From the NCBI GenBank assembly GCA_963760795.1, contig CAVXEP010000009.1, positions 1 through 64,000 on the forward strand: a stretch of 64,000 nt of DNA, in the 5' to 3' direction. The DNA comes from an uncultured delta proteobacterium. GTDB lineage: Bacteria > Desulfobacterota > Binatia > UBA9968. The notes below the pieces were generated by a model that was not told the origin of the DNA, made no database searches, and saw only the letters and a list, made by a program, of their open reading frames with translations. The translations under genes and the position numbers were made by a program. Below, one piece after another: positions 1 to 56,834 of the stretch (position 1 is the stretch's first letter; each line of letters begins with the position of its first letter).

Positions 1-645
1 CCGCCTTTGCTCCGTCAATACTCGGGTCATCGCTGGTGACGCGAAACCAGCAACGACGGGGATAGGATTTTCAAACACCGATTTTTGCGTAAGCTCCAAT
101 GTATCGCCGCCGTGTCGCGGGGTTAATCTGGTATAGGGAAATTTAAACCACCTTTTTTTCTGATCCGAGCAATAGCGCCGGACCGTGGCCTTGTCAAACT
201 CATTTCTGTTTGATGAAAATCCCGTGCTGCTTCGGCAGACTCTCAACCGAAGAGATCGACTCCTTGATGGAGTTGCGATAATCAGGTTGATCGCGGCTAG
301 CCAGCAATTCTAGTGCCCGGCGCAGGTGGATTTGAACTGGCCCACGAGACCTTGCCAGGGCGTCCTCGATTTCTTCAACCTCCTGCTGTTCCGTGATCCG
401 GCGATGACGCCATCGACGAAACGATAGGCGGAGACCTCGCGCTCAAGGGCAAAATTGCAGGAATCCACAAACCTGTCGGTGAACTGATTCCGTTCGTAGT
501 TGTTCGACGACGAACTCAATGAAGTCATAAACCTCATACCACTCGGCTTCGAAGAAGTGGCGACGAAGTTGGGCACGGACGTTGTTCCAGTCGTCGTCCA
601 ATAGGTCGAGAGGCTTCTTGAAGTACGAGTACCACAGGCGCCGGC
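1..645 (-). pseudogene. AbiJ-NTD4-like abortive-infection protein, 5'-truncated and frameshifted
   Basis: Joining minus-strand frames gives [79 protein letters not shown], typical of this family. No intact start; the 3' end is degenerate. Confidence 0.7.
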
Positions 646-936
646 AGTGCGACCCTCGTTCACGATCTTAGAAGAACCGCAGTTCGAAACATGATTCGCG
701 CCGGTGTACAGGAGCGTATTGCAATGGCTCTAAGCGGACATAAGACGCGAAGTGTCTTCGATCGCTATGATATTGTTAGCGAGTCGGATCTCCAGGAAGC
801 CAGCAGGAAGGTCCAACGTCATATAGCGGAGCAGCCGAAAAGTGGCGTAGTCGTCTCCCTCCAATCAGCACAAAAGGTCCGGCGGTTTGAGGCTAGACAC
901 GGACAGAACACGGACAATTTCCCGTCAGCCCCGTAA
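622..936 (+). pseudogene. Tyrosine recombinase/integrase C-terminal remnant
   Basis: [28 protein letters not shown] gives the catalytic HxxR, H and Y. An in-frame stop lies upstream at 619-621 and the N-terminal part is absent. Confidence 0.85.
897..916. repeat. 9-bp direct repeat ACACGGACA x2 (candidate integrase arm-type sites)
   Basis: acacggaca-ga-acacggaca in the last codons of the integrase remnant, just before the tRNA fragment. Confidence 0.45.
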
Positions 937-964
937 TAAGTGATTCGTAAGTGTTTGAAAAAAC

Positions 965-991
965 TGGAGCCACCCGCCAGAATCGAACTGG
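965..991 (-). other. tRNA 3'-end fragment (T-arm + acceptor + CCA, Thr-like), probable att-site remnant
   Basis: Reverse complement CCAGTTCGATTCTGGCGGGTGGCTCCA. No D or anticodon arm follows. Confidence 0.7.
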
Positions 992-997
992 GGGCGG

Positions 998-2030
998 GAA
1001 TAGTGTCAGGCTTGAATATCTTAATCTAGTTGCCGCAAAGTATGGTCGAGCAGACGACGAAATCCCGACTCCTGTCCGAGCCGCGCCTCAGCTCGCCTAA
1101 CCGCATGGCTTGCCGTCGACAACTCCCGAACCTGCAGAAATCGCCTCAGCTCCTCCAACCCCGCCTCTCCATGCCGTCGCCCCAGGTAGCACACCAACTC
1201 CCGACACCGCTTGATGTCCTCACTCCGCTGTCGCCCGCGCATCTCCGCCTCGTTCTTGCCCGTCACTTTGCTCACCGCTTGCACAATCCGCTTTAGTGTT
1301 GGCCGTACTTCCCGTCCGGACGTCCGCTCCATTTTCCTTCGTACCACTCCCTCGAATTCTTCATCGCCAATAAAAATCTGCTTTCTCACCTCCGGCGCCA
1401 GGTTCCGCACCCTTTCTCCCCGCTTCCCCTCGACAAACTCCCGATACTGCTCAACCCGACGGCTCTTGCTTCCGGTGAAATAGTCCAATACCGATTCCGC
1501 CTTTGATCCCGCAATCCCTTTACCCTTCAGATAAGACCCGTAGCTGCTCCATCGGTAGTCTTGCGGCCGCTCGGCCAATTTCGCTTCCACAGCATTGAGG
1601 TGAATGTATCGGCTGACCTGAAGCAGGTAGTTATCCTTGTCCACTAACATGGCTTTGTAACGCTGCTCAAAAACATGGCCCGTCCGACCGTGGCGCCGGT
1701 TAAAATAAAGCGTGTAGCTTGTCTGTAACGCTTGCATCATCTTGGACAGATTGCCCTCGGGAGTCTCCAACAGTACATGCACGTGGTTCGACATCAGGCA
1801 GTACGCCACAAGATCCACTTTCTTCTCCTGGCAGTACAGGGACAGCTTCTCCACATATCGCTTGCGGTCTAGGTCGTCACGGAAAATCGCCTGGCGGTTA
1901 TTTCCCCGGCAAATCACGTGATAAACCGCTCCGGGGTATTCTATGCGTAGCGGGCGGGCCATTCCCATCCTATACCGCGTGGGAATGCAGTTTGCAAATA
2001 AATAACTATATGCAAGCCTGACCCTAATTC
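998..2030 (-). mobile_element. RAYT-type HUH transposase element with imperfect ~22-bp terminal inverted repeats
   Basis: 998-1019 gaatagtgtcaggcttgaatat versus reverse complement of 2008-2030 gaattagggtcaggcttgcatat. Confidence 0.75.
1021..1962 (-). CDS. REP-associated tyrosine (Y1/HUH) transposase with C-terminal HTH-like domain
   Basis: MARPLRIEYPGAVYHVICRGNNR, HVH motif, RYIHLN, YRWSSY. Start placed at the MARP ATG. Confidence 0.9.
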   Translation of the reverse strand: MARPLRIEYPGAVYHVICRGNNRQAIFRDDLDRKRYVEKLSLYCQEKKVDLVAYCLMSNHVHVLLETPEGNLSKMMQALQTSYTLYFNRRHGRTGHVFEQRYKAMLVDKDNYLLQVSRYIHLNAVEAKLAERPQDYRWSSYGSYLKGKGIAGSKAESVLDYFTGSKSRRVEQYREFVEGKRGERVRNLAPEVRKQIFIGDEEFEGVVRRKMERTSGREVRPTLKRIVQAVSKVTGKNEAEMRGRQRSEDIKRCRELVCYLGRRHGEAGLEELRRFLQVRELSTASHAVRRAEARLGQESGFRRLLDHTLRQLD

Positions 2031-2281
2031 TATAACTTAACATTGCCAATCCACCATCATCATGGAACCTAATTACGGACGCCTATGCCGTTCAAGCCAA
2101 GTAGTTGCGAATTGCCGGCGCTTAGGGCTGATCTCCCATGTCGTCTGGTTGAAAACTTTCGCGTGTCGCTATCGGAATATAATGTTCTCGCCTCTCTTAA
2201 AACGGGTCGTTAACCGCTCACGCAAATCAATTATAGTAGCCTCGCAAGCTGTTCGTTTTCGTGTGGTACACCTGATAGGGC

Positions 2282-2539
2282 TCAAGTGAACTGTTCGTAC
2301 TGCGCGTCGTCCTCCTTCCAAACTCCATTGAATCGTAAGTGACCGATCTCCATTAAGGTATGCAATTTTTCCGAAGCCTGGTTCCAGAGCACTGTGCCGT
2401 CGTAAAGAGAAAAAAGGGGGAATGGCTCATCGAAAATTTCGGAAGATACTTTCCAAAGTTTCTGCCAAATTAAGGCAAAAAACGATCGGCGGTATTCTGT
2501 GACCAATTCACTGATGTGACTTGAATGACTCTTCTTCAT
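2282..2539 (-). CDS. Small low-GC hypothetical protein, candidate immunity protein of the Rhs tip
   Basis: 85 aa, AT-rich, co-oriented immediately downstream of the Rhs C-terminus. Confidence 0.4.
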   Translation of the reverse strand: MKKSHSSHISELVTEYRRSFFALIWQKLWKVSSEIFDEPFPLFSLYDGTVLWNQASEKLHTLMEIGHLRFNGVWKEDDAQYEQFT

Positions 2540-2599
2540 AAATATATTATTTTGCTACCTGGACAGCAATTACTCTACGCCAATTCCTATCACCGTCAT

Positions 2600-5500
2600 C
2601 AGTGCGTACCTATAATAAACGGGAATATTACTCCACGGACCAAGCCTGATTTAAAATTAATTGGTATGTTTAACCAATTCCAGCCTGAGTTTCGGACTTT
2701 AATATCTTTCCGATTCTATAACCGCTCGTCTCCCAGACAAATTTGCAGCATCGCTGCCCGAAGCGGCATACCAAATACCGCGGGGAAGCGCAGTTTAAAA
2801 ATACTTTAGCGTCTGCAGTTCAACAGGCTACCGATTGAAGTATTACCTATCGTAGTGCCTTCTTTTGCTGCACGAACCGCCGCGCTGAGCGGCGAGTAAA
2901 TAGACCAGGGTTCGGAACTAGCACGCCATTTAAGCCGCTGCCCACATAATGGACGGTACCGATAGCGACCACCACTGTATTTCCCAGCTGCGTATGCAGT
3001 GCTGCATTGATCGACTATGTCGTTCAGGCCAATCGTTGCCACCAATTCTTGTCGCAGCAATTGCGAAATGGGAATCGCACTTTGCCCTAGAAGTCTTTCC
3101 GACAAATTGAATGAGTTCATAAAGCCGCCTGAGAGGTAGTCGCCCGCTCCAGCGGAAAAATTGGAAACATCCGTTAACCAGTCAAGTCCGTAAGGATCTA
3201 CGCGCCCAATCGGGTTGCCACCCACATAACCATAAAAATTAACACCAGCACCAAAACCTTTGGGATCTTCGCTAATAAATCGCCCGCTCGTCGAATCATA
3301 ATATCGAATACGGTAATAATGTAAGCCACTTTCCGAATCAAACTCCCTCGACGTGAACGTATACGGCTGGAAAAAGTTGGCATCGAGCTGCGATTCGATC
3401 TTGCCGAAGGACGAATAGGTGTAGCGTTGAGCAACGGCACCAGTCTGGGTCGTCAATTCGGTGATGCTGCCGAGACCGTCTTTATGGTAGTAGAACGACT
3501 GAGTGTTCTTCTCCATCATCAGAGGCTCATCGATGCCGGGACCGTGGGTGTAGCGGGCTACGATTTGATTGGCGCCGTTGAGTTCGAGCAAGATGTCTTC
3601 GTTGTCGTAGACGTACTTGGTCACCGTCGTGGTGCCGGCGATCACTTCCTTCTCGACTCTTCTGCCTAGACCATCATATCGATAGTTCGCCGTGTTGCTT
3701 GGTGACACAACGCGAACCAGTTTGTTGTCCGCATCGTACTCGTATTGCGTGATAGCGCCGCCCAACTTCGCAGTCTTGCGGGTCAAGGTTCCCGTTGTTG
3801 TCGTACTGGTATGTGAAGTTTGCGTCTTCCAACAACTGGTTCGCCTGGTTGAAAATCGACGCGCCGTTCTGGTTGGAGCCGGTTCGGTTGCCGACCGGAT
3901 CGTAATTAAAAGTTTCGAGCGGATTCGTTGGCAGTGGATTCACCGCATGCGTCAACCGGTTCAACACATCGTAGGTGTAGTTCGCTATGCCAGCCATTGT
4001 CGCCCTTCGACTGCCGATTCCCTACCTTGTCATACGTGTAAGCGAACGCGTTGATCGTCACGCCGCTTCGCTGGTGTGTGAGGTTTAATAACTGCGACGC
4101 CGCATCGTAGGTGTAGTTCGTCACAACACCGTTGGCGTGCGTCATGGACGTTCTTCGACCTAACGCGTCGTACGTGAACGAAATGACTTGCCCTTTGTTG
4201 TTCGTGATCGAGGTCAGCCGGTTGAGCGCGTCGTACGCGTACGTCGTTAGGCCAGTCGGATCGATCATTGACGTCCGGTTGCCGTTGAGATCGTAGGTGT
4301 AGACGGGGTCGAGATCATCCAACTTTGGATTTTGGGTTTCCGATTTTGGATTTGACACCGAGATTTCGGAAATACCACTCCCCGCTGCATTAACGCTGGT
4401 TGTTGCGAAGGGTTGGAGTTTTCCTGCCGCAATCATGGCGAGATAAAGGTTCGCGTATTGACGATCCGCCGCCGGTTCCGTAACCTCGAAGACGTCAGAC
4501 GCAAACACTTTTCGTTGCTGCAAATCTGTGTCGGCAGTAGGTGTTTGCACCGCAGTGCTGCCGATAACGGTGTTCCCACTGCTCAGGGAAGCGTTAGCTT
4601 GCTCCATACCCGACACGACGGGACTGACTGGCCGCCGTATTCCTCGCAAACTTCCTTGCGCGGTCATCACCGGCATTGCGTCACCAAACGTCGGACTTAG
4701 CTTGGCGATCTGCTGTTGCAAATGGATCGTACCGCTCTGGCCGTTCGGTGCGCCGCTACCAATTCCGCCGTTTACTGTAATATTAGATAAATTGAAACCA
4801 GTGGCGCTCCCGTAGTAGACCGCAACTCTACCGCCCCCGCCACCACCACCGCCGGAAGGTGTACCGGGACTTCCGTTGGCGCCAATAAGTCCGGTACCAG
4901 AAAGTGTACCGACATCAATACGGATTCCACCTCCGCTACCGCCGGCGCTGAATCCTTCGGCTAAACCTCCACCCGCGCGCACAGCTCCGTTGAGCACAAA
5001 TGTTTGTGCCGCTATGCGCGCAAGACCCCCACCATTTCCGGCAGGACTGCCATTAAATCCACCTCCACCGCTGCCGACGTCATTTGGATTCGTAGCAACA
5101 CCATACAATGGGTTTGTCGAACCGCTGAATGCACCGCCTAATCCGCCATAGCTTCCAGCGGTACCCGAACTATTTACCGCCTTGAATCCTAAAGTCATAC
5201 CATTCGTAGAACTCGGGTTCCCCAGTCGTCCACCACCCAAAAACCCGATGCCAATGACATCGATCCGACTCGTGCCGTCGATTGTTAAATTTTCAGTCGC
5301 CAAATCAAGTTTGAACGCCGCGGTCCCGGTCGTCGCCGTGTGGGTGAGTATCGAGTTGTTGGTCAAGCTAGTGCTATTCGAGATAACCCGAACACCAGAT
5401 GCATATTCGCTGTTGTTCGAGACTTCTAATGTTCCCGTAAGATTCAGAGTTCCATCGAATTTCGCCCGAGCATTGCGCCGAATTCGGAGGTGGCTGAACG

Positions 5501-8500
5501 AAAGTGTCGTCGATGACGCACCTTGAATTGGAGTCCTCGAAGCGGCCAGCAACGTCAAATTATTATTATCAATAACTAACTCGCCACTTTCTCTAGCCTG
5601 GCCCCTCCAGGTAAACAGTACCCGCGCCTCCATTTGGAGAGCCGGCACCCAGAGCTCCGAATGAGTTAACATTATTAAAGGAAAAACTAGTTCCGTTTTG
5701 ATAATAGATCGCTATCCGCCCACCACCGCCGCCGCCGCCACCCGCCGGCACGAATCCCGCACTTCCGTTGGCTGAAATTGTCCCGCTCCCTTGCAGTGTT
5801 CCAACATCGATCCGGATTCCGCCGCCACTACCTCCAGCGCCAGAACCATCTGCGGGTCCTCCGTTCGCCCTAATAGACCCATTCACCGACATTGATTGTG
5901 CAACGATCCGCGCCAAGCCGCCCCCATTACCGGCGGGGGCGCCTTGGAATCCACCCCCACCGCTACCTACTTCATTAGGATTCCTAAAGTCGCCGTACAC
6001 GGGATTAGTTGCACCAGAAAAGTTGCCGCCCAGGCCGCCATAGCTTCCCGCCGTTCCTGATTGGTTCGTCGATTGGAACCCTACCGTCATTCCATTCGTC
6101 GTGCTTGGGTTTCCAGGTCGCCCACCAGCCAAGAAGCCTCGACCACTGACATCAATCCGGCTCGTGGCGTCGATAGTAATGTTCTGGGCATTTATGTCGA
6201 GTTTGAAGGTTTGGGCCGACGTTGTTGATAGCGTGTCCCAGCTTGCCCCCGGTGATCAGCTCAATCGTATTGGCTGTAATACCATTACCGATCACGAATT
6301 CGCCGTTAGAAGCAATTTCCAAGGCACCTGAAATATTTAACGAACTGTCCAACTTCGCGAGAGCTGTTCGACGAACCCGCAAATGCGTTAATGACAAAGT
6401 AGTACTAGCAGCACCTAGTATCGGTGTCGTCGAGGTAACTGGAACCGTCAGGTTGTTATTGTCGACAATTAGCTCGCCGCTCTCTCTAGTTGGACCCTGC
6501 AAATATACGGTTCCCGCGCCACCATTGATCGAACTGCCACTGAAAGCCGCGCCAAAAGCGCTCACAGTCGTAAAATTGAAGGTCGTCGCACTCTGATAGT
6601 AAATAGCCACTCTGCCACCACCGCCACCTCCGCCACCCGCAGGCACAAATGCTGGACTTCCGTTTGCGGCAATTGAACCCATTCCCGAGATCGATCCAAC
6701 GTCGATCCTAATACCTCCGCCACTCCCGCCAGCGCCGGACCCATCCGCAGAACCTCCGTTAGCTCGAATGGATCCATTGAGCACAATTGATTGCGCAACG
6801 ATCCGCGCTAAGCCACCGCCATTACCCGCAGGGGCGCCTTGGAATCCGCCACCACCGCTGCCAACTTCACTGGGATTCCTAAAGTCGCCGTATACGGGAT
6901 TCGTTGAACCGGAAAAGTTACCGCCCAGGCCGCCATAGCCTCCCGCAGTTCCCGATTGGTTTGTCGCCTGGAATCCTACCGTCATTCCATTCGTTGTGCT
7001 GGGATTTCCCGGTCGCCCACCAGCCAAGAAGCCTCGACCACTCACATCAATCCGGCTCGCGGAGTCGATTTGGATCGTGCCTGTTACAACAAGATCGAGC
7101 TTGCCGAGCGTGGCCTCCGTCGTTGGAGTATGTGTCAAGACGGCGCCGTTCAGCAGGACTACGTTCGCAAAGGTGTGTTGCCCGTTGACGGTCAATGTTC
7201 GGCCGTTAACTTGTAACGTCTGACCTTCAAACTGAAAATTGGTTGCGCTGATGGTTGTATCAACGTTTATAGGAACGACTGCCGTGGAGAGCGCCGATTC
7301 CGGGGTCGAGCTACTGGAAGCCAACCGATTAGCGGCATCGTAGGTATTGAAGACACCCGTCGTCGGATTGATCACCGACGAAAGATTGCCAACAGTGTCA
7401 TAGGCAAAATTCGTGACGTAAGGGTTGGTTTCCGTCGACGTCGGTGGACGGGTTTTGCTGATAAGACGGTTCAACGCGTCGTAGTTGAATACGATTATCT
7501 GGCTGTTGCGGTTTGTCGTGGAAGTCAGATTGCCATTACCGTCGTAGGTAAACGTTTCGGTAAACCCCAGCGGATTGGTTGCGGACGCGAGACGATCTAG
7601 ACCATCGTAAACGAAAGTTGACAGCTGATTCTTGGCGTCGCGGACCTGGGTTAGATTACCCTTCGGATCGTAGCCGTACTGGGTCGTTTTGAGATCAGCG
7701 TCTAAAACCGTAATAAGCCGATTGCGCGCATCATAGGTAAACTGCGTGACACGATTCTCGGCGTCGGTGGAGTTACTGACGTTGCCGGCGCTGTTATAAG
7801 CCAACGTCGTCACGTCGCCTTTCGGATTCGTCGTCGTAACCAGATTACCGTTTCCGTTGTAAGCGAAATTCGTCGTCGTTTGAACGGCAGTTCCGACCGC
7901 GGAAGTAACTAACAATAGCAATCCGCGCGCGTCGTAGCTCATTTGAGTGCGATTGCTGAGCGCGTCGATGATCTCGATGGGGTTGCCCTTCACGTCGTAG
8001 TTGATCGTAGTGGTGTTCCCCTTGGGATCGCGGATCGTTTTGACCTGATTAAAAACCGGCTCGTAGGTAAAAATTGTCGTGGCGCCGACGGGGTCGGTTG
8101 TAGTCAGCAGATTTCCCTTCGCATCGTACGCCATGGTCGTGACTGCGCCGTTGGGTCGGGTGATCCGTGTCGGCAAGCCGTTGGCGTCGCGTACCGTAAC
8201 CGTTGTTTGACCGAGGGTGTCGGTTTGAGATGTCACTTGTCCGAGCGCGTCTAGAACAAATGTGCTCTGGTTTCCTCTTCCGTCGGTAAGCGACGCTGTG
8301 GCGTTTTGGCTTGTCACAATCGGTGCCGGGTTGGTCGGCGTACCCTGGCCTAACGCGGTGTCCACAAGACCGCGAAGCTTGCTGGAAACTAGCGCGCGCG
8401 TCTCGCCGGTCGGGCGGGTCGACTGGGCGAATCGCCCGGCGAAGTCGTACGCATATGTGGTGCTTTGCCCCCGCTCATCGGTTGCCTGTATGACATGACC

Positions 8501-11500
8501 CTTGCCGTCGTAGGCATAGGCGATGAAGCTCGCATCTGGGTTGATAATCCGAAGCAAATTTCCCGCTGAGTCATGCTGGAAGAGCGTTTGCCGTCCAGCG
8601 GGATCGGCGATGCTCTGGAGCCTCGCGCCGCTATAGGTCAGAGACGTCACCAATCCAGCCGGATCGGTGACGGCAAGCAGTCTAGCGCTGCCATCGTAGG
8701 TAAACGTTGCCGTATTCAGGTTTCGATCGACGACCGAGGTCTGAAGGCCCTGGGCGTTGAAATTGACTCTTAGTTCCGTCCTTGTACGTTCGCGTGTACG
8801 TGCCGTCTGCGGAGTTTCTGGCTAATGTCGAGAACTCGCGCGCGGGAGAAGTAAACGTATCGGGGCCTCCGGAGAAAAACAGCGCCGTGCCGTCGCCGCT
8901 GGTCAATAGAACATCGCCGCTGGATTGGACATGGAGTTGCTGAAGATCGCTGATCGCCCAACCAGCGCCAATGGCACTGCTCTTTCGATTAAATACAATC
9001 ACATTGCCGGCAGAAATCCCGCCAACGGATGAATTGAGATAGTTGCTAAAAACCGTGGCTTCAAAAGGATAGCGCCCGGTCGCCAAATTCGACGCATCGA
9101 ACTGGACCGACATGCGCGACGTCGAATCGGAGTCTTCCAGCAACGAACTACTGTTGGTGTGAATCTCGCCACCCTGCTGAACGCCGCCAACTTTGAGCCG
9201 AGTTGAAAATGAATTGGGTACAGCAGCACGGACACTCAACGTGCTGTCTAAGGAAATAATCGGCCTGGGGTCGGCAGTTATAGAACTGTAAGTGAGTGAC
9301 AGGTTCCGGCTTTGTCCGAGAGAGCGATAGGAAGACAAGCCATGTGAGAGGTATAAGCTACCTTCTTCCAAGTTGGCCTCTGATCCAACGGCAGTGCGGC
9401 AAGATCCGCAGAAATTGTTTCCCTGACTCGGGTTCGAAGTCGTACTCGTCGCGAGCGGGAAATGCCAAGCACTGGCGGACACGCCGCCTTCAACCGTGAC
9501 AACGCTCACGCCATCGGCGGACACCGCACTCTTGCCAACGATATTGAACTTTCCAGTGTCAGGGCTCAGCGACCAGAGATTGAACTCATTACCTGGCGGG
9601 ACGCCATCGGCGTTCGGGAATGTGATCCGCGCGGGCGGGTTAAAGCGAATGCCTGCCGGCTGGATGGTCACCGCCATGCCAGGACGCAATTCTTCAGGAC
9701 GCGACTCCGGCCGGCCATAATCAGGGACCGGATTGATCGACAGTTTGCCGGTGAAGGGAGTACCGTCTGCGTTGAATGCCGAGCCGCCGGCGATTTCAAG
9801 CATAGCGCCCGGCAGGTTGGGGTTGGTAACCACGGTCTCAAATACCGCACTGACCTGGACCTCGGCTTCCACGTCGACGTCAGGGAGTGAAATCGCTGAA
9901 TTCAAATCGTTGAGCACACCGTTAATTAGCTCCACCGCCACGGCAATGATCGCAAACACGCCGAGGTTGGCGTTACGGCCGTTAACGATGAGTTGCTGGG
10001 TTGCGGAAGGAACGCCAGTGATAGTGAAAATACCGTTAGCGTCAGTCACTCCCGTGTGGCCGCTGGATCGCAGCGTCACTTGCACGTTGCTGAGCGGGAC
10101 ATTTTGCAGATTGACAACCTTGCCGCGAACTGCGGTGGTGCCGCCTGGCGGCGGATTGGGCACGGTGATGGTGATGGTTTCTGAGGCGGAATTTGATCCG
10201 GCGGTAGCGGAGAAAGTGAGTTGATAACTTCCCACCTGGGTCGTGCTCGGCCGGAAAGTGAACACACCCGTAGCGGCATTGAACGTCGCATGGGTCATCA
10301 GCGGCAGCGGTGCGACGAACAGGCTTCCCGAACCGGTCGCGCTGATGGCGCTCACGGTAAAAGTCAGCGTCTCACCGAGATTGACCGTCTTGTTGCCGAT
10401 CGGGTTAAGCGCCAATGCCGGACCGATGGTCGCCGTAGTTTGCGAAACCGCGCTCGTGCCGAAGGTGTCGATCACCGTCAAAGTGACGGTGTATATACCG
10501 GTCGCAGCGTAAGTGTAGGTCGGATTCGCTCCCGTGCCTATGCCGCCGCCTGTGGTGAGCGGCGTCGAACCATCGCCGAAGGTCCAGGAAAATGTGAGCG
10601 GATTGCCATCCGGGTCGTTGCCGGTGCCGTTGAATTGAATTGGTGTACCGACATTGCCGCTGTACGGACCGCCGGCATTGGCCGTGGGCGGTAGATTGAC
10701 GAGAATAACATTGATCGAAACCGTGGCAGGCGCGCTGGTGCCTAGGCCGTCGCTTGCGATGAACGTGAAACTATCGGCGCCGAAATAATGGCTCGTCGGT
10801 GTGTAGCTCACCGTCGCCGTACAGGTCGCACCCTGGCCCTGAACCGGGCAGTTGGGCGCGCCGATATTGCCGAGGGTTCCGTTGCTCGGGGGAATGGCGA
10901 TGTTGAACGTTAGTACTTTGCTATCGATGTCGCTGGCATTGAAGATGACGATCACCGGCGTGTTTTGATTGGTGTTGATCGACTGCGACTGCGCCACCGG
11001 AGGATCGTTGACATTGACAACCGTGACCTGCGCCATCGCCATGTTGCTGTATAGGGTTCCGTCGAAAACTCTATAGGTAAACGTATCGACGCCGTTAAAG
11101 TTGGCCTCGGCAGTGTAATTGAACGAGCCGTTGGCGTTGAGACTAAAACTAGTCGCGTGAGTCGGCCCGGTGACCAGCTCAACGGTCAGAGTCTGGCCGA
11201 CATCGAGGTCGCTGTCGTTTGCCAGCACGCCGGGCGCGGCGATTCCCAAGACGCTGTCTTCCGCCACACTGTAATTATCGTTGTCGGCCACCGGGGCGTC
11301 GTTTACCGGGTTCACCGCGATGGTCACCATCGCCAAATTGCTGTCGCTCACGCCGTCGTTCGCCTTGTAAGTAAAACTATCCGCGCCATTGAAGTTCGTT
11401 GCCGGCGCGTAGCTAAACGAACCATCAGGATTGAGGGTAAAAGATGCCGCGTGGCTCGGTCCGGTGACCAGAATCGCGGTGAGATCGGCCTGCGGAGTAT

Positions 11501-14294
11501 CGATATCGTTGTCGTTGGCTAATACGCCGCGAGCCAGGACATCCAGCGAAGTATCTTCGTCGGTATTGTAAACGTCATTGGTTGCCACCGGTGCGTCGTT
11601 GACCGGGTTAACCGCGATCGTCACCGTCGCTTCATTGCTGTCGGTGCTACCGTCTTTAACTTTGTAGGTAAACGTATCGGTGCCGTTATAGTTAGCCGCC
11701 GGGGTGTAACTGAACGAACCATCGGGATTGAAGGTGAAGGACGCCGGGTGGCTGGGTGCTGAGACCAGAACCGCGCTTAAGTTCGCGGCCGGGGTATCGA
11801 TATCATTGTCATTGCCCAAGACTCCGGGCGCACCCGTGCTGAGCACCGTATCCTCATTGGTATTGTAAAAATCAGCGCTGGCCACCGGGGCATCGTTGAT
11901 GACATTGACGACCATGGAAATCGTCGCAGCATTGGAATCCACAGCGCCGTCGTTGACCCTGAATGTAAAACTATCCGAACCACCGGAGTTGGCGCCGGGG
12001 GTGTACGTGACCGTGGCGGTGCAGTTTGTTCCTGGCGTGCCGGTGTTATTGGGCACAGCGGTACATGAGGGCGCACCGATAGCGCTGAGGGAGCCGTTGC
12101 TCGGACTGATGACGATGCTGAATGTTAGGCCATTACTATCGAAGTCGGTACCACTCAGTGTAATGAGAATCGGGTTGTCTTCGTTGGTCTGCGCGGTGCC
12201 GTTGCTGGCGACTGGCGCATCATTGACTGGCAGGACGGCGAGCGAAACCGTGGCGACGGTGGAGTCAAAGGCGCCATCGTTGGCTTTAAAAGCGAAGTTG
12301 TCCTGGCCGTTGTAGTTGGCCGCGGGAGTATAAATCACCGTCACGGTGCAATTTGACCCCGCGCCGCTAGCGACGCAATTTGGCGATGAAACAGCGCCGA
12401 GTGCGCCGTTGGTTGGAGCGGTAACGACACTGAAGCTTAAGCTCGAGCTGTCCACGTCGCTCGCTGCGAGCGTGATAACTACCGGCACGTCTTCGTTGGT
12501 GGATACAGTGGCGCCGTTGGCGGTCGGCGCGTCAGCGACAGACACCACCGTAATCGAGGCGGTGTTTACGTTGCTGGTGGCGAGGCCGTCACTGACCGCG
12601 AATATGAAGCTGTCCGCGCCATTGAAGTTGGCCGCCGGGGTGTAGGTAACGCTGCCGGTGCAATTCCCGCTCGAACAGGTGAGCGTGCCGCTGTTGGCAT
12701 TGAGCGTGCCGTTACTCGGAGCAGCGACGACGTTGAAACTCAAAGTCGCATCGTCGAGATCGATAGCGCTGAGCGTGACACTGACGGGCGTGTCTTCGTT
12801 GGTGGTTGCGCTAACATTGTTGGCGGTCGGTGGGTGGTTGATGGCGGTAACGGTCACCGTGGCTGGCGCGCTATTGAATTGCCCGTCGTTGACTATCAAC
12901 CGAAGGATATAATCGCCTATGACCAGCGGCGTGAATGTCGGATTAGCTGTGTTGGCGCCGGTGAGCGTGATGTTACTGCCGCCGGCCTGGGAGACAATCG
13001 TCCAGAGAAATCCCAGCGGCGCGCCTTCGGGATCGCTGCTCTGAGTACCGTTGAGTGTAACGAGCTGGCCCGTCGGCACGGTCTTAATGGCACCAGCGTT
13101 GGCCACCGGCGGTGCGTTGGGATACTCGAAAGCGCCGGCATCGAAAGCTGGAACACGGTCCGCGTTACCATCGGCAGGGCGAATACCCTCGATCACGAAG
13201 TCGGCCTGAAATATTGGGTTGTAAGAGGGATTGAAGCCAAGCGTGCGCGGGTCCATGCCGACGTCGCTGGCGAGCGAATTGGGCTTGAGATTAAAATCAT
13301 CGTCCGCCGTGTTGGGTTGGTTGTCCGGGCCGTTCTTGTTGCCGAATAGATTTGCCGGCAGCTCGCATCCCGGTAGCGGTCCGACACCCGCACCTTCAAT
13401 TCCCAAAGACGTGAAGTTGCTGGAATCCGTCGCGTCGAGTACTTGACTGGAAATCTGTCCCTGTGTGTTGCCACAGACAAGATTGTTTAACAGTTTGATC
13501 CCCGCGGGCTGCGGAGTGTTGGAACTCTCTCTCCTCACGCCAAACCGGCCGCCGGTAGTTCCCGACGCCGTGCCGTTGCCGTTGATGATGTTGTTGGCGA
13601 GTATGACTACGTGGGTGCGCGCGACATCTATACCGTTCCACTGGTTGCCATAGATCGTATTGGCGATGACGTAATGCGGCCCGCCATCGGCATCGATGAA
13701 ACTAATAGCATTTCGCCCGTTCGCGTAGATTAGATTGTTGACGATCAACGTGCCGGGGTTGCCGCGATTGACCGTGATGCCGCCGTCGCACGAGCTGCCG
13801 CCGTTGGCGAAAATACGGTTGAGCTCGATGTGAACGTCTTGATTCTGATTGTTGCCGCCGAGTAGCGAGATCGCTTGACCGCCGGTGCCGGTAATCGTCA
13901 GACCGCGGATGGTAATGAACTTAGACTGTTGTACGCGGATAGCATAATTCCCCGTACAAGTGCCGGGCACACCGGTTAATTTGACCTGCCCTGGATTCGT
14001 AGCGGGGTCGGCCTCGATGATGATGCGGTCGACCTCGCTGGCTCCAGGAAAATTGTTTCTCCCGGTAATCGAAAGCTGTTCGGGATAGGTGCCAGCCTGG
14101 ATTTGAACGAAGTCGCCGGGACCGGCCCCGTTGATCGCGGCTTGAATCGTACTGAAACACGGAGACTGGCCGTTGCAAGTGGGATCGGTGCGGTTGACGT
14201 AGCGAAAGGTCTGAGCTTGCGCTGTACTTATATTGAGACCGAGAAGAATGAACAGAGACAGGGAAAGCACAGTAAACCGTTCATGTTTAACCAT
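2600..14294 (-). CDS. Giant secreted Rhs/YD-repeat (teneurin-like) protein, ~3800-3900 aa, split by frameshifts
   Basis: Abutting ORFs 8682-14294, 6152-8653, 5593-6132, 3906-5672, 3674-3997 and 2806-3786. Signal peptide ending AQA, beta-helix, PKD, cadherin-like repeats, carboxypeptidase-regulatory-like domain, YD repeats, Rhs core ..YYRIRYYD..GRFISEDP..NPIGRVDPYGL. 3' end approximate. Confidence 0.85.
4720..7260 (-). repeat. Three ~0.9-kb (~298 aa) glycine-rich modules within the Rhs gene
   Basis: RIDV.G.GFL.GGR.GNPS.TNGMT.GF..GSGGGG..GNGGGLARI.A..GGSGGGIRIDVG..GGGGGGGGR.A.YY three times. DNA period ~893-895 bp (e.g. cagccaagaagcctcgaccact at 6126 and 7021). Confidence 0.9.
10700..12840 (-). 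repeat. About seven tandem cadherin-like/Big_9 (~100 aa) repeats
   Basis: Repeated N[DH][AP]P.A..T.ED..YTP..N[FY]NG.D.F.[FY]..SDG units. Confidence 0.85.
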
Positions 14295-17192: not shown

Positions 17193-18450
17193 TTAGCCTT
17201 TCAGCTCCGCCGCTATGCTGTACATTTGATCGGCGGTGGTGATCACCCGTGAATTGACCTGAAACGCCCGCTGCAAGCTGATCAGCGAAACAAACTCCCG
17301 CGCCAGCTCAACAGTCGATAGCTCGAGGCTGCCCGCCACCAGGCTGCCAAAGCCATTCTGACTGGGAGTACCGGCTTGCGCGGCGCCGGATTCGAAGTTC
17401 GGGGCGAACAGCGTATTGCCGAGCGGATCGAGATCGTCAACGTTGTTGAAGTTAGCCATGGTGATTGACGCGAGCTGCTGCGTGAGACCATTGGTAAATT
17501 GGCCATTGACGTTTCCTTGCGAGTCGACGGTCACCGCATTCATAGTACCGGCGGCGTAACCGTCCTGGTTGAACCCAAAAAGAAACGATGGCTGAGCGAA
17601 TTGCACGGTACCGGCAAAATCGATGGCGCCGGCAGGAATCGTTTGGGCCGCCCCATTGGTCCAGTTGAGTCCGTTAATGTCGCCGATCGTACTGGCGGCG
17701 CCATTGAGCTGCCCGGTGGCAGTAAAAACCAGCGTCCCCGGCGTACCCACTTGGCGCAGATCGGTGCTTGACGGCGTCGTGCCATCGAGTTCGCTGCGCG
17801 GCGCCACCACCTGGTAGTCCCAGGTATTGGGCGCGCTCAGACGAAACAGGAAAGTCAGATCATGGCTGGCGCCCTGACTGTCGTAGATCGTCGCCACCGT
17901 GGAGAAATTGCTTGACCGCGACCCATTGGGCGGGACTGGCATCGGGCCCCGCTGGAAATGGCGTACTCGGGGTGGTCGCCGACGCATCGAGATTGAGTTG
18001 CATGGCGAGATTGCCGGTGGCCTGCGCCGGGATCGCGAGCGCGCTATTGATAACGATATCGCCGGCAGAGCCTTGAAGAATCTGCCCGCCCGGATTGACC
18101 ATCTGGCCGGCGCTGTCGAGGTGGAACTCGCCGGCACGCGTATAGCGCAGGCTATTTGACAGCGGGTCGCGCACGACGAAAAAACCGTTGCCGGAAATCG
18201 CCAGGTCCAACGCCCCATTGGTGGTTTCGAGGGCACCCTGTTGGAACGGCTTGCCGACATCGGCCAAGCGCGCGCCATTGCCAGTTTCGATTTCACCCCA
18301 CACCGTCGGCATGACATCGTCGAAGCTGAAGCGGCTGGATCTGAAGCTCACGGTATTGAGATTGGCGATATTGTCGCCGGTGATCTGCATGGCGTTACTG
18401 AACATCTCCATGGCGTTGCCGGCGACTAGCATGGGTCCGAGAATCGACAT
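17193..18450 (-). CDS. flgE: Flagellar hook protein FlgE-like (copy 2, frameshift near 17915)
   Basis: GDNIANLNTVSFR..YTRAGEF in one ORF and GSLELSTVELAREFVSLISLQRAFQVNSR in the next. Confidence 0.85.
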
Positions 18451-18463
18451 CGAATTTCCTCCG

Positions 18464-19129
18464 TTAGCGTGACGCCCGCACCGCGATGACGCTGCTGAGC
18501 GGCACATCGACACCGTTCACTTCCAACACCGGCTCGGTGCCGTCGAGCCGCACACCGGTAACCAGGCCCTGGAGTTTGCCGGATGCGGCAATCTTCTTGC
18601 CATTGACATCGACAGCATTGATGTCGAACCCGTAAACGCCCGGGCGCACGCTTTTGCCGGCGCTGTCTTTGCCGTCCCACACCAGGGTTTGCTCGCCGGC
18701 GTTGCGCGCGCCGGCATCGATACGGCGGACGATCTCGCCATTGGCGTCAAACACGCTGACCACCACCTTGGCCGCGTTGGCGCCCAACTGATAGCCGATG
18801 TTGGACGCTGCGCCGGCGCTGACGCCGACTTGATTGCCGGCGGAGGTGATCTGCTTGCCGATCAAGGAAGCCGCATTGTACTGATTCATCGAGCCTTGGC
18901 CATTGTTCATCGCGCCGAGCTTCTCGTTGATCTCGATCAACTGGCCGAGACTGTTGAAGGTCGCCAACTGCGCCGCGAATTCTTGATTGTCCATCGGCTG
19001 CAGCGGATCTTGATTCTGTAATTGCGTGATCAAGAGCTTGAGAAAATCGTCCTGGCTAGCGACCTGGTTCTTGAGCGGATTCGTCGCTGTGCTTGCAGCC
19101 GCGGCGGCGTTGACATTTTGTACGGCCAT
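18464..19129 (-). CDS. flgD: Flagellar hook capping protein
   Basis: DDFLKLLITQLQNQDPLQPMDN..WDGKD. Confidence 0.95.
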   Translation of the reverse strand: MAVQNVNAAAAASTATNPLKNQVASQDDFLKLLITQLQNQDPLQPMDNQEFAAQLATFNSLGQLIEINEKLGAMNNGQGSMNQYNAASLIGKQITSAGNQVGVSAGAASNIGYQLGANAAKVVVSVFDANGEIVRRIDAGARNAGEQTLVWDGKDSAGKSVRPGVYGFDINAVDVNGKKIAASGKLQGLVTGVRLDGTEPVLEVNGVDVPLSSVIAVRASR

Positions 19130-23097: not shown

Positions 23098-23823
23098 TTA
23101 CAGCTCAGTGTCCAAGAGCTGCCGGCGAATCTCATCGATCTGAGTCGGTAGGGTGGCATCGACGATACCCGATTCGGTCTCCAAGCGGCACCCGCCGCGG
23201 GCGATCTCGTCGCTGGCGACAATCTTGATGGTGCGTTTGCCGTCGCTGCCGATTTTGACCAAGTCCGGTCTGAGGTCAGCAAGCAACCGGTGGTCGGTCG
23301 GGTTGAGCCAGATGCGCAGCTGTTTGGCGTCTAGGGCCTCGTGTTTGGCGCGTTCGAGCACGGCGGCGACGATCTCGGCGTCGGCGTCGACCGCTTTGGC
23401 GATCACCTTGGCCGCGATCTCCAGCGCCAAATCAACGAGCTGCGGCGCGCAGCGCGACAGCAACTGTTCTTCGAAGGCAATCAGGGATTGGCCGGCGTTG
23501 GCCAACGCCGCTAGCGCCGGCAAGAGTTCCTGCATCGCCCGCTCGCGGTCCGCCACGGCGCTTTCGCGTGAGGCTTGCTGGCGCAGCGTGTCCGCTTGCA
23601 GCGCCGCCTGGGCGATGATCTCAGCGGCTTGTTCCTGAGCGGACTGAAGGATCCACCATGGCGCGAGCTCGAGCAGGTCGAGAGATTCTAACTCAAATCT
23701 GCGATAGTCCGTGTCAGCGTTACCGATCGGTGCCGGCGCCATTGTATCGCCGTCCAGATCCGCTTGGCGATAGAGGTTAACTTCCGCCGCCCGCAAGTCG
23801 TCGCGCGCCACCAGCCTAGACAA
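23098..23823 (-). CDS. fliH: Flagellar assembly protein FliH
   Basis: LALEIAAKVI..NPTD..GGCRLETESGIVDA, between fliG and fliI. TTG start inferred. Confidence 0.85.
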   Translation of the reverse strand: MSRLVARDDLRAAEVNLYRQADLDGDTMAPAPIGNADTDYRRFELESLDLLELAPWWILQSAQEQAAEIIAQAALQADTLRQQASRESAVADRERAMQELLPALAALANAGQSLIAFEEQLLSRCAPQLVDLALEIAAKVIAKAVDADAEIVAAVLERAKHEALDAKQLRIWLNPTDHRLLADLRPDLVKIGSDGKRTIKIVASDEIARGGCRLETESGIVDATLPTQIDEIRRQLLDTEL

Positions 23824-24844
23824 GCAGATCCTCCTTGGTCTTGCCGCTGGAGAGAAAAACTTTGCCCTCGCCTTCGAGTTGGCGCGCGCGGTCGATGACT
23901 TCGCGTTGGACAGCTTCAACGTCGCGCAGCCGCACCGGCCCCATGTTCTCGATTTCTTCTTTGAGCAAGGCACCGGCGCGCTCCGACATGTTGGCGAAGA
24001 GTTTCTTTTTGAGGGCGGGACTCGCCGTGCGCATGGCCATGACCCATTTGTCTTTTTCGATTTCCCGGACCAGCACCTGCATGCTGGCATCGTCGATTTT
24101 GCCCAAGTCTTCGAAGGTGAACATCAACTGGCGAATGCCGTCGGCTAACTGAGGTTCGTATTCGCCCAACCCAGCCATCACCCGCTCTTCAGTGGCTTTG
24201 TCGACAAAGTTTAAGATTTCCGCCACTGGGCGCACGCCGCCCACCTGCTTGCCCTGGACTTGGCGCACGGCGTTGCGCAGCACTTTGCTGATCTCCTCGA
24301 TGGCGCCCGGAGAGGTGCTACCGAGACTGGTAATGCGATAGGCGACCTCCGCCTGTTTGTCTTCCGAAAGCGTCCCGAAGACCTCGCCGGCATGGGCCGG
24401 GTAGAGGTGGGCTAACACAAAGGCGATGGTCTGCGGGTGTTCCTCTTGGAGAAACTGGCCGAGGACTTTAGCGTCCATCTCGTGCAGCGAATCGATGCCG
24501 TAGGATTCATCGCCTTCCTCGGTAAAAATACGGCTCAATACGGTCGCGGCCTTCTCCGCCCCCATCGCTTTGGTCAATACCCGTTGCAGATAATCGTTCG
24601 TCCCCTCAGCGAAGATATTGGCCTTCTTGAGAATCTTGCAGGTTTCTTCGAAGACCTCGTCGATATGCTCGGTTTCGATCTGCGCCATGCGATGGACGCC
24701 CTGGCGCAGCATGACAATCTCTTTTTCCTGCAACTCGCCGGCGATGGCGCCGGCGAGTTCTTCGCCGACCAAGGCCAAGAAAATCGCCGCCTTCTCGGGA
24801 CCGGTTAAAGTTGGTTTTTTCTTCGCTCTGCCGTCGTCAGCCAT
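23816..24844 (-). CDS. fliG: Flagellar motor switch protein FliG
   Basis: GPEKAAIFL, EEHPQTIA, MFTFEDL, MGPVRLRDVEAVQ. Confidence 0.95.
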   Translation of the reverse strand: MADDGRAKKKPTLTGPEKAAIFLALVGEELAGAIAGELQEKEIVMLRQGVHRMAQIETEHIDEVFEETCKILKKANIFAEGTNDYLQRVLTKAMGAEKAATVLSRIFTEEGDESYGIDSLHEMDAKVLGQFLQEEHPQTIAFVLAHLYPAHAGEVFGTLSEDKQAEVAYRITSLGSTSPGAIEEISKVLRNAVRQVQGKQVGGVRPVAEILNFVDKATEERVMAGLGEYEPQLADGIRQLMFTFEDLGKIDDASMQVLVREIEKDKWVMAMRTASPALKKKLFANMSERAGALLKEEIENMGPVRLRDVEAVQREVIDRARQLEGEGKVFLSSGKTKEDLLV

Positions 24845-30526: not shown

Positions 30527-30581
30527 GGAGTTACTCCTGTGAGAATTTATGATCGTTCCAGGCGTCATTATTTCACCGTTG

Positions 30582-30597
30582 AGCAAGCGTAATGCCA
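30582..30597 (-). promoter_or_regulatory. sigma54 promoter for the kinase-regulator-flgB operon
   Basis: TGGCAT-TACGC-TTGCT. Confidence 0.8.
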
Positions 30598-56830: not shown

Positions 56831-56834
56831 TGAG

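Follow-up and report, generated by a model that had tools for sequence, protein, structure and literature searches.

The window, i.e. the whole stretch of 64,000 nucleotides from an uncultured delta proteobacterium that was analyzed, harbors an Rhs/YD polymorphic-toxin gene of ~3,800 aa (2806..14294), which is distributed over six frame pieces (frame path 1>2>0>1>2>0). All features of the gene and its insert are located on the minus strand and follow the order (N to C) signal peptide, Ig/cadherin stalk, YD shell part 1, three glycine-rich modules, tether, YD shell part 2, Rhs core, and tip. A probable Sec signal peptide, MVKHERFTVLSLSLFILLGLNISTAQAQ (14211..14294), was recognized by inspection of the translation. 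It is followed by the N-terminal stalk (9900..14210, lower boundary approximate), defined by Pfam hits on a 1870-aa piece and consisting of a beta-helix-like region, a K319L-like PKD domain, about eight Big_9/cadherin-like domains, PKD, He_PIG, and CarboxypepD_reg. PF13229 (Beta_helix) is detected in the orthologue L013, which bears on the beta-helix-like region of the stalk.

YD shell part 1 (7307..8821) comprises 11 RHS_repeat stretches (PF05593, E 2.5e-78) and is also delimited by the alignment of the related protein P0269 (1949 aa, 97-98% identical) to the solved Rhs shell 7q97_A; the shell probably starts further upstream, near 9600. As described beforehand, the YD run halts at ...NTYDAANRLASSSS (~7307) and restarts at ...VYTYDLNGNRTSMIDPTG (~4305). 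The intervening sequence encodes a ~48-aa lead-in together with module 1 (6272..7306, core 6431-7165), supported by an AlphaFold2 model and its beta-helix neighbors, module 2 (5377..6271), module 3 (4711..5376), and, between module 3 and the shell, a poorly conserved tether recognized by comparison with orthologues, whose 135 aa (4306..4710) agree with the ~135-aa linker of the preliminary description. YD shell part 2 (3184..4305; PF05593, E 2.2e-25) ends in the Rhs-associated core (…DPYGL; TIGR03696, E 3.2e-22). The gene terminates with a variable C-terminal tip of 125 aa plus stop codon (2806..3183), for which no family match was obtained.

The five frame changes within the 11.5 kb of the gene all have the same direction. 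Each corresponds to one extra base in the window, and every covering contig from four public soil-metagenome runs (X1, X2, X3, X6; 3 studies) has one base fewer at the respective position: 8763..8765 (all four runs), 6230..6231 (X1, X3), 5599..5600 (X1, X3, X6), 3992..3994 (all four runs), and 3785 (X1, X2, X3). P0269 reads uninterruptedly through three of the five sites (6230..6231, 5599..5600, and 3992..3994). The window also contains a second FlgE gene that is split likewise, and the locus L005 of a near-identical MAG is broken as well, but at other positions. Since the extra bases are absent from the public contigs, and given the split FlgE gene and the different breaks in L005, the pattern points to consensus errors. 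The frameshifts noted in the preliminary description are thus present in the assembly, but these comparisons point to sequencing/assembly errors and not to real frameshifts. The apparent pseudogene being an assembly artefact, caution is also advisable with other split genes of this genome.

The frame changes, the state of the source genome (35 contigs, 88.9% complete, 6.15% contamination), and inter-repeat joints in the public contigs could be taken to mean that the whole architecture arose by the chimeric joining of distinct genes, or that the gene is a dead one with real frameshifts. The sides of these joints span 18-24 letters within runs of glycine codons, which is below the 30-letter guide of the tool itself. 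The joint with the longest side (170), which leads back 838 bases with 56 letters in between and would put module 1 back onto module 2, is confined to a single contig of run X2 and absent from the other runs. In related genomes, one uninterrupted reading frame of 3,639-3,864 aa holds the architecture, and stop-free frames of 3805, 3864, 3770, and 3179 aa carry YD repeats, three modules, tether, and YD repeats. A chimeric join or separate genes, as considered in the preliminary description, are therefore not borne out, as P0269 and the four unbroken orthologous frames keep the identical order of parts. An artefact or dead gene is extremely improbable; judging from the compared sequences, 2806-14294 and its orthologues almost certainly represent a single gene with an insert inside the YD shell.

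The two YD stretches flanking the insert are collinear with the solved Rhs shells 7q97 and 8h8a. Residues 2-357 and 1408-1779 of P0269 align to 436-790 and 902-1290 of 7q97_A, and residues 166-343 and 1415-1778 to 453-625 and 807-1151 of 8h8a_A, so that the insert is placed about two thirds along the shell. In L011, a relative without modules, the two YD halves are only ~22 aa apart. Together with the intact orthologue frames, these data corroborate the proposal of a module array inserted in a YD shell. The insertion point is identical in all seven full proteins examined, and conservation of both site and module number (three) extends across the order, where a match spanning the junction occurs in 13 of 123 genomes, including that of the window. 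Across the phylum, such a match was found in only 2 of the 401 genomes sampled (again including the window's own). The tether measures 100-135 aa in six three-module proteins and is 25-75% identical to that of P0269. Of the five orthologues compared, it is the least conserved segment in all but L013, where it ranks second lowest.

The Rhs-associated core with its DPxGL motif stands directly before the toxin tip (...VDPYGL; TIGR03696 covers residues 175-252 of the last piece with 78.8 bits against a cut-off of 32.5). Near the core, identity to P0269 drops from ~97% to ~50%. The tips of four orthologues differ from one another, one being weakly PLA2-like. The tip encoded in the window resembles the 166-aa tip of its relatives over no more than ~48 residues at its start; the toxin tip of this copy may be truncated or further mis-assembled. 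The C-terminal toxin tip is, on these comparisons, polymorphic. Imm74 is tied to toxins used between bacteria (Zhang et al., 2012, PMC3482391, as far as the available text goes). An Imm74 gene (PF15603, 46.2 bits, cut-off 27.1) starts 5 nt after the stop codon of the orthologue in L014, and another is situated downstream of the orthologue in L013. No Imm74 homologue was found within positions 1-3600 of the window, and an 85-aa ORF at 2282-2539 has no family match. YD repeats, DPxGL core, and variable tip assign the gene to the Rhs/YD-repeat polymorphic toxins.

The modules are three repeats of ~298 aa each with a start-to-start distance of 895 nt and a DNA identity of 73% over 300 nt. At the protein level, module 2 is 77-78% and module 3 58-65% identical to module 1. 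The motifs GSGGGG, GNGGG, GGSGGG, and G8R, reported previously for these repeats, are invariant across all three copies, and spacing and identities likewise confirm the earlier delineation. Tandem Repeats Finder reported no repeat for the array; assembly collapse is excluded here on sequence grounds, because the repeats are too diverged. In an alignment of 117 module sequences, 25 columns are nearly invariant; apart from a single Y and a single P, they hold G, A, or S, and D, E, H, K, and R are all absent from them. Catalytic or other polar residues are thus not conserved. The module has no sequence match in Pfam, NCBIfam, or PDB.

An AlphaFold2 model built from the 117-sequence alignment (pLDDT 91.4, pTM 0.90, 25 short strands) suggests that the module very probably folds as a right-handed parallel beta-helix. 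Structural comparison with VIA-align ranked the HMW1 secretion domain (Z 11.2, 206 aligned residues, rmsd 5.7) and EtpA (Z 11.2) first, where Z 11 lies only moderately above the stated background of Z 7-8 and concerns a very common fold. Awp1 (Z 9.8) and UpaB (Z 9.0) followed, and then tailspikes and pectate lyases. In total, 172 chains scored Z >= 5, and the best 50 of these 172 are nearly all beta-helix or beta-solenoid proteins. Foldseek gave no match to the PDB at E <= 0.001.

The preliminary description had proposed polyglycine-II bundles as in the glycine-rich domain of ALK/LTK. Glycine runs (G4-G8) indeed come back once per coil, ~50 residues of the model (124-173) are of high confidence but without DSSP strands, and Foldseek matches to viral models are glycine-rich, collagen-like proteins of giant viruses (E 3e-6 to 3e-4). 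However, PF12810, the ALK/LTK domain family, matched neither the module at E <= 10 nor anything genome-wide at E <= 1. Residues 6-353 of the model superpose on ordinary right-handed beta-helices, nearest those of adhesins, and no ALK or LTK chain is among the best 50 of the 172 structural matches, which does not amount to an exclusion. The idea is not supported by these results and is considered very improbable.

The module is not restricted to Rhs proteins. At E <= 0.001 it matches 6,307 representative proteins (1,357 at E <= 1e-30), with up to 12 tandem copies. Many of these are giant proteins with Ig-like, cadherin-like, dockerin, TIG, or TSP3 domains, and module-only proteins show no Pfam family in the precomputed column. 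Among the best 150 representatives, 13 also have YD repeats, but there the modules form N-terminal arrays. The occurrence of related sequences in giant proteins fits an extracellular adhesive building block.

The explanation favored here, considered somewhat probable as a whole, is an in-shell beta-helix binding arm of a Sec-exported Rhs toxin. A ~3,800-aa toxin of an uncultured soil bacterium would form a ~1,150-aa YD shell encoded in two segments. The chain would leave the shell wall about two thirds along, at a conserved position between repeats, and form three tandem ~298-aa glycine-rich right-handed beta-helix modules, giving a rod of presumably ~15 nm. The ends of a beta-helix should sit at opposite ends of the rod, hence the need for a tether; the 100-135-aa, fast-evolving one found here would supply the return path, after which the chain completes the shell, whose end is formed by the Rhs core (DPxGL) and the variable C-terminal toxin tip. 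The natural reading of the ~900-aa beta-helix rod is that of an external arm, which would project outside the cocoon. By analogy with the receptor domains in the shell of SGS1 and with beta-helical adhesins, the rod may, without being an enzyme, bind or target the surface of the toxin-receiving cell, the odds being slightly below even.

Right-handed beta-helices also occur in enzymes, and the modules could instead be polysaccharide lyases or depolymerases, of the kind known from phage tailspikes and pectate lyases, that strip capsule or exopolysaccharide from the target cell and so give the cocoon access. VIA-align retrieved PL6 lyases, pectate lyase, and tailspike proteins at Z 7-8.5, and the highest-ranking Foldseek hits were PL6 alginate lyases (E 0.05). 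This is nevertheless unlikely, considering that none of the 25 nearly invariant columns holds an acidic or basic residue, that neither Pfam lyase families nor PF13229 (Beta_helix) match the module at E <= 10, and that the highest-scoring structural neighbors are adhesin helices without enzymatic function.

A passive structure without a ligand of its own (a rigid spacer, an oligomerization rod, or a fold-assisting scaffold) would account for a conservation almost purely of glycines and for the giant multi-repeat proteins the module also builds. It would also be in line with homogenization within proteins, as seen in structural repeats: the three modules of L015, L016, and P0274 cluster by protein (bootstrap 91-100%, depending on the protein). 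Yet a spacer has no obvious reason to be situated in the shell wall, where both of its ends return to one point, and the conserved number and site of the modules argue against it. In addition, the modules of distant orthologues diverge somewhat faster than the shell (53-61% vs 59-75% identity); parts involved in surface recognition often diverge faster. A purely passive role is considered rather unlikely.

A further, tentative step beyond the binding arm, less likely than not, is a self-contained delivery particle built by an order of soil bacteria, in which a Sec-exported Rhs cocoon has a receptor-binding rod mounted through its shell wall. If this were true, the rod, and not a T6SS or CDI machine, would pick the neighbor receiving the toxin; the specificity could be reset, as the three modules evolve in concert; and the rod would derive from a very large uncurated family of glycine-rich beta-helix modules and be connected by a disposable tether. 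The usual picture of an Rhs cocoon is that of a closed capsule, with targeting by N-terminal domains or the secretion machine. A conserved ~1,000-aa rod in the shell wall implies that bacterial YD shells can accommodate very large inserts at one particular position, which makes this position a natural test bed for shell folding and for the way a toxin finds its target. The module itself accounts for 6,307 representative clusters but has yet to be curated as a family; with a profile and an experimental structure, thousands of giant surface proteins now called "hypothetical" could be annotated.

Among known systems, the predicted fold is shared with beta-helical adhesins (the TPS helices of HMW1 and EtpA/FHA; the autotransporter passengers UpaB, Pet, and IcsA; the Candida Awp adhesins) at 9-16% identity (Z 11.2 for 2odl and 8cpk, 10.9 for 8vba). 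These are free helical passengers, whereas the helix encoded in the window is embedded in another domain and lacks a match to a sequence family. A two-partner-secretion or autotransporter adhesin was rejected as a candidate, since no Pfam family of a TPS secretion domain or autotransporter barrel occurs in any gene piece or in the orthologues; the resemblance is one of fold only. The module is a clear member of the unnamed glycine-rich family of giant bacterial surface proteins described above, but most members string modules together with other domains, whereas this protein places them inside a YD shell.

In the TcB sequence, a beta-propeller is located between YD stretches. The TcB-TcC complex (e.g., 4o9x, 6h6e) likewise combines a YD cocoon with an extra domain, and the C-terminal core region gives a match at E ~1e-11 to 1e-13. 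According to the available text of the RhsA paper (PMC8765631), the propeller belongs to the cocoon-forming chain and closes the cocoon. It gates the cocoon and docks on TcA, whereas the insert described here is a putative beta-helix rod located elsewhere; a TcA partner is absent from the window. The bacterial Rhs effectors 7q97 ("Rhs family protein"), 8h8a, Tre23 (7pq5), Tse15 (8uy4), and Salmonella bongori Rhs (8qjb) have the YD shell, DPxGL core, and variable toxin tip in common with the window protein, with sequence matches of E 1e-36 to 8e-55. Their shells are continuous in sequence, in contrast to the interrupted one found here, and, as described in the available parts of their reports, they travel as T6SS cargo and possess PAAR, VgrG, or clade domains instead of a signal peptide and an Ig/cadherin stalk.

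The nearest precedent is SGS1 of mosquitoes, an Rhs/YD shell bearing putative receptor domains; residues 1533-1850 of P0269 match its shell (8fjp, E 2.3e-12). According to the available text of PMC9935623, the segments coding for four of its domains interrupt the run of Rhs/YD repeats, which leaves the earlier premise that accessory domains are normally N-terminal incomplete. The inserts of SGS1 (beta-propeller, CBM, lectin-CRD, and wedge) comprise ~100-400 aa each and are distributed over several sites of a eukaryotic protein. The window protein, instead, carries a single insert of ~1,050 aa (three beta-helix modules plus tether) at one site of a polymorphic toxin from a bacterium, whose core is autoproteolytic. 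The homologue search proposed earlier yielded both a conserved insert and an insert-free relative. The earlier suggestion of an undescribed system was too strong: the locus encodes a polymorphic Rhs toxin, and inserts in YD shells are already known in kind from SGS1, but the insertion of predicted beta-helix modules in a bacterial Rhs toxin is new.

The Rhs/YD gene at 2806-14294 (-), encoding ~3,800 aa, is laid out as six long open pieces between 2800 and 14400 (-), which in stop-to-stop reading are consecutive with short overlaps (14348-8685, 8821-6155, 6255-5596, 5711-3909, 4021-3677, and 3939-2809). Each piece is shifted by one frame against the preceding one, always in the same direction. 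The first starts with a hydrophobic leader ending in AQA-Q, read by inspection as a putative Sec signal peptide, and harbors about eight Big_9/cadherin-like domains as well as PKD domains and CarboxypepD_reg (Pfam). On the second piece, RHS repeats take up the first 500 residues (11 stretches, E 2.5e-78); they resume at the close of the fourth and are also present in the fifth and sixth. The Rhs-associated core (NCBIfam TIGR03696, 78.8 bits) ends in ...VDPYGL, and the 125 residues following it gave no family match. Repeats, core, and a variable tip are all present, which places the window protein among the Rhs polymorphic toxins.

The YD run ends at ...NTYDAANRLASSSS and restarts at ...VYTYDLNGNRTSMIDPTG. 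The interval between them holds three repeats that recur every 895 nt and share 73% identity in DNA over 300 nt. Their GSGGGG, GNGGG, GGSGGG, and G8R motifs do not vary, and at the protein level repeat 1 shares 77% identity with repeat 2 and 58% with repeat 3. A stretch of 135 aa after the repeats joins back to the YD repeats. Motifs, period, and linker confirm the preliminary description of a YD run that is interrupted by a triple glycine-rich module and then resumed. Since Tandem Repeats Finder reported no array, the copies are considered old and diverged and not the product of assembly collapse or duplication. The module is absent elsewhere in the genome (6.58 Mb, 35 contigs).

The frame changes raise the question of real stops separating individual genes. 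Logan contigs from four soil-metagenome runs (three studies) were compared with window 3600-9000, and at exactly five places (3785, 3992/3994, 5599/5600, 6230/6231, and 8763/8765) all covering contigs are one base shorter than the window. These differences coincide with the five frame changes of the Rhs gene. P0269, a database protein of 1,949 aa that is 97-98% identical to the window protein, passes through the breaks at 6230, 5600, and 3994 in a single frame, and a near-identical locus of a metagenome-assembled genome (L005) is broken at different places. A second FlgE-like hook gene at 17193-18513 (-) is likewise split over two overlapping ORFs, one with Flg_bb_rod (the N-terminal rod) and D1 (17860-18513 (-)) and one with FlgE_D2 and the C-terminal domain (17193-18317 (-)), probably by a further single-base assembly error. 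Additional overlapping pairs or triples of long same-strand ORFs resembling split genes (23098-24844, 29284-30586, 37135-38314, 47663-48988, and 55946-57806, all (-)) suggest frame errors all along the contig. On these sequence comparisons, the breaks in the Rhs gene are assembly errors and not stops between separate genes. In view of the contigs, P0269, the split FlgE gene, and L005, the Rhs gene is therefore treated as one reading frame of ~3,800 aa; all analyses beyond the frame breaks used single-frame pieces or naturally intact relatives, and the window gene was left unmended. Joints between repeats also occur in the public contigs, mostly with sides of 18-24 letters within runs of Gly codons, and were not taken to show shorter alleles. 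One contig of run X2 jumps back 838 bases with a side of 170 letters; this joint is read as a repeat mis-join because it is absent from every other run.

The position of the insert within one shell, also proposed beforehand, was established by comparing P0269 with all PDB sequences. In the Rhs protein 7q97_A, residues 436-790 align with P0269 residues 2-357, and residues 902-1290 with 1408-1779; in 8h8a_A, residues 453-625 align with 166-343, and residues 807-1151 with 1415-1778. The YD halves thus align in order to solved shells and are collinear with a continuous shell, with the 1,000-aa insert located about two thirds along. At the distant, insert-free locus L011, the regions matching the two halves are ~22 aa apart. 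In seven of seven full proteins (P0269, P0274, P0142, and the open frames of loci L013-L016 with 3,805, 3,864, 3,770, and 3,179 aa), the pre-insert alignment stops at one query residue (397-398), the first module begins ~55 residues further on, and the post-insert alignment begins at query residue 1. These identical ends indicate a conserved site at which the chain leaves the shell and returns to it.

Homologues with and without the insert were sought by comparing an 889-aa piece with 123 genomes of the order, the window's own included. Matches at E <= 1e-20 were found in 26 of the 123, a tally that takes in G074, an unpublished genome with YD-only matches. The YD-to-module junction is spanned by a match in 13 of the 123 (rows read by eye), namely the window's own genome and G084, G079, G065, G081, G077, G115, G042, G083, G106, G036, G114, and G001; three module matches are present in 10 of the 12 others. 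Open frames of 3,639-3,864 aa occur in four genomes of the order. Among an even sample of 401 genomes of the phylum, seven show a module match at E <= 1e-30, and the junction is spanned in two only (the window's own and G114). The 357 database proteins fetched comprise 293 with modules only, 33 with YD repeats then modules, 28 with modules then YD repeats, and three with YD repeats on both sides; one-sided proteins with short gaps are mostly fragments from short contigs. An alternative architecture consists of an N-terminal module array with the YD shell ~400-2,500 aa later (e.g. P0012, P0022, and P0045). By own count among the matches listed, PF05593 is present in 12 of 120 near-length and 35 of 120 longer matches, and those bearing it are named only 'RHS repeat protein', 'YD repeat-containing protein', or 'hypothetical protein' at the source.

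Neither Pfam (E <= 10) nor NCBIfam (E <= 1) nor the PDB sequences (E <= 10) yielded a meaningful match for the module itself. In an exhaustive HMMER search, the representative proteins matching it numbered 6,307 at E <= 0.001, 3,875 at E <= 1e-10, and 1,357 at E <= 1e-30; many of them comprise 2,000-7,000 aa, with up to 12 tandem copies. The Pfam column of module-only proteins is empty. Families co-occurring with the module include Ig-like (Big_5, Big_7, Big_9, and Big_13), cadherin-like, TIG, I-set, dockerin, and bacterial TSP3 domains. AlphaFold2 on the single sequence yielded an unusable model (pLDDT 39.9), and with 117 aligned sequences a model of 25 short strands (pLDDT 91.4, pTM 0.90). 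VIA-align against 48,161 chains placed 172 at Z >= 5, and of the best 50 of these almost all are beta-helices or beta-solenoids. Highest were the HMW1 secretion domain (Z 11.2, 206 residues aligned, rmsd 5.7, 16% identity), EtpA (8cpk, Z 11.2; 8vba, Z 10.9), Candida Awp1 (Z 9.8), and UpaB (Z 9.0). Lower neighbours are tailspikes, pectate lyases, and other autotransporter passengers. Foldseek against the PDB found nothing at E <= 0.001, the top row being a PL6 lyase (E 0.05). Against viral models (BFVD), the model of window 6271-7330 obtained six matches (E 3e-6 to 3e-4) to glycine-rich proteins from prasinoviruses, Pandoravirus dulcis, Orpheovirus, and one uncultured phage, plus one unnamed entry. 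Those from the prasinoviruses, Pandoravirus dulcis, and Orpheovirus are 'collagen-like' or PA14 proteins (17-22% identity), and the module may have its fold in common with giant-virus surface proteins. The ESM Atlas contributed unnamed clusters only, together with one that has G8 in 41% of its members and serves as a lead only.

The 25 nearly invariant columns of the module consist of glycines, two alanines, one serine, one tyrosine, and one proline, with no charged residues. The predicted structure is read as a non-enzymatic, glycine-stitched, right-handed beta-helix. A relationship to the glycine-rich domain of ALK/LTK, considered earlier, finds no support, as PF12810 has no match in the module (E <= 10) or in the rest of the genome (E <= 1). 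Model residues 124-173 are of high confidence and have no strands assigned, and the beta-helix may hold polyglycine-II-like segments.

Relative to P0269, shell halves, modules, and tether were compared segment by segment. Identities of the two halves, the modules, and the tether are 88/82%, 74-96%, and 75% for L013; 79/78%, 75-86%, and 45% for L014; 72/72%, 56-59%, and 33% for L015; 59/70%, 53-60%, and 25% for L016; and 70/75%, 58-61%, and 29% for P0274. The tether measures 100-136 aa in six of six three-module proteins and 288 aa in the five-module protein P0142, where about half of it is a further beta-helix-cap-like part followed by a K/E-rich stretch. Scaling of tether length with module number is not established by this single five-module protein. 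In both P0142 (3029-3315) and P0313 (1396-1611), the last module is succeeded by an extra beta-helix-like cap with a low-complexity, K/E-rich stretch behind it, so these four-/five-module relatives differ from the three-module clade with its tether. In a maximum-likelihood tree of the 18 modules, those from the genus cluster according to position, with strong support for modules 2 and 3 and only partial resolution for module 1. In the three distant proteins, each protein's own modules cluster together. Support is 99-100% in L015 and in P0274; in L016, a pair of modules 2 and 3 has 100%, with module 1 placed just outside it. Grouping by protein indicates concerted evolution of the three copies; independent triplications at one site would account for it less simply.

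The C-terminal tips differ between orthologues. That of L015 (G106) is weakly phospholipase-A2-like at residues 3693-3769 (PF09056, 26.0 bits, below the cut-off of 29.4; also PF06951). In P0269 and L014 the tip is 166-170 aa long; that of the window, 2806-3183 (-), is similar to no more than its first ~48 residues and stops where the relative's tip goes on. The tip of L013 likewise ends early. Truncation, divergence, or more assembly errors could explain the short window tip. A 99-aa Imm74 gene (46.2 bits) lies at L014 13909-14208 (+), 5 nt past the Rhs stop codon, and a 64% identical copy at L013 887-1183 (-), ~1.1 kb past the Rhs gene; Imm74 was not detected in window 1-3600. For Tox-ARC toxins, Imm74 is given as the principal immunity protein, and an inter-bacterial use is argued (Zhang et al., 2012, PMC3482391). 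Downstream of the window gene, a fusion of an IS200-like Y1 transposase and a DnaA-C-type HTH is encoded at 1021-2049 (-), and a similar 268-aa ORF (by eye) is situated downstream of the orthologue at L014 14265-15071 (-), so this association recurs. A 117-aa ORF at window 310-663 (-) weakly matches AbiJ N-terminal domain 4 (22.7 bits, below the cut-off of 34).

Since a beta-helix advances monotonically along its axis, the three-module array would be a rod with widely separated ends, each module contributing, by rough estimate, 10-12 coils and ~5 nm. An insert in the shell wall would have to begin and finish at one point, and the poorly conserved tether (about 100-135 aa) could represent the return path, with the rod pointing outward. 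By analogy with the shell-inserted receptor domains of SGS1 (PMC9935623) and with beta-helical adhesins, the rod might bind a structure on the recipient-cell surface and thereby aim the cocoon.

Receptor domains inserted in the shell are reported for SGS1 (PMC9935623). The window protein likewise carries accessory domains within its shell, and that kind of insertion is already known. The beta-propeller of TcB is positioned inside the TcB sequence. Tc cocoons bear such a propeller (PMC8765631). The giant-gene preprint (10.1101/2023.11.21.568195) describes folds other than that of the module. In the open-access literature searched, no paper reporting a beta-helix inserted into the shell of a bacterial Rhs protein was found. 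Compared with these systems, what is new is the type of insert and how large it is, that its site and its copy number are conserved across an order of soil bacteria, and that its building block is a very large domain family lacking a curated model.
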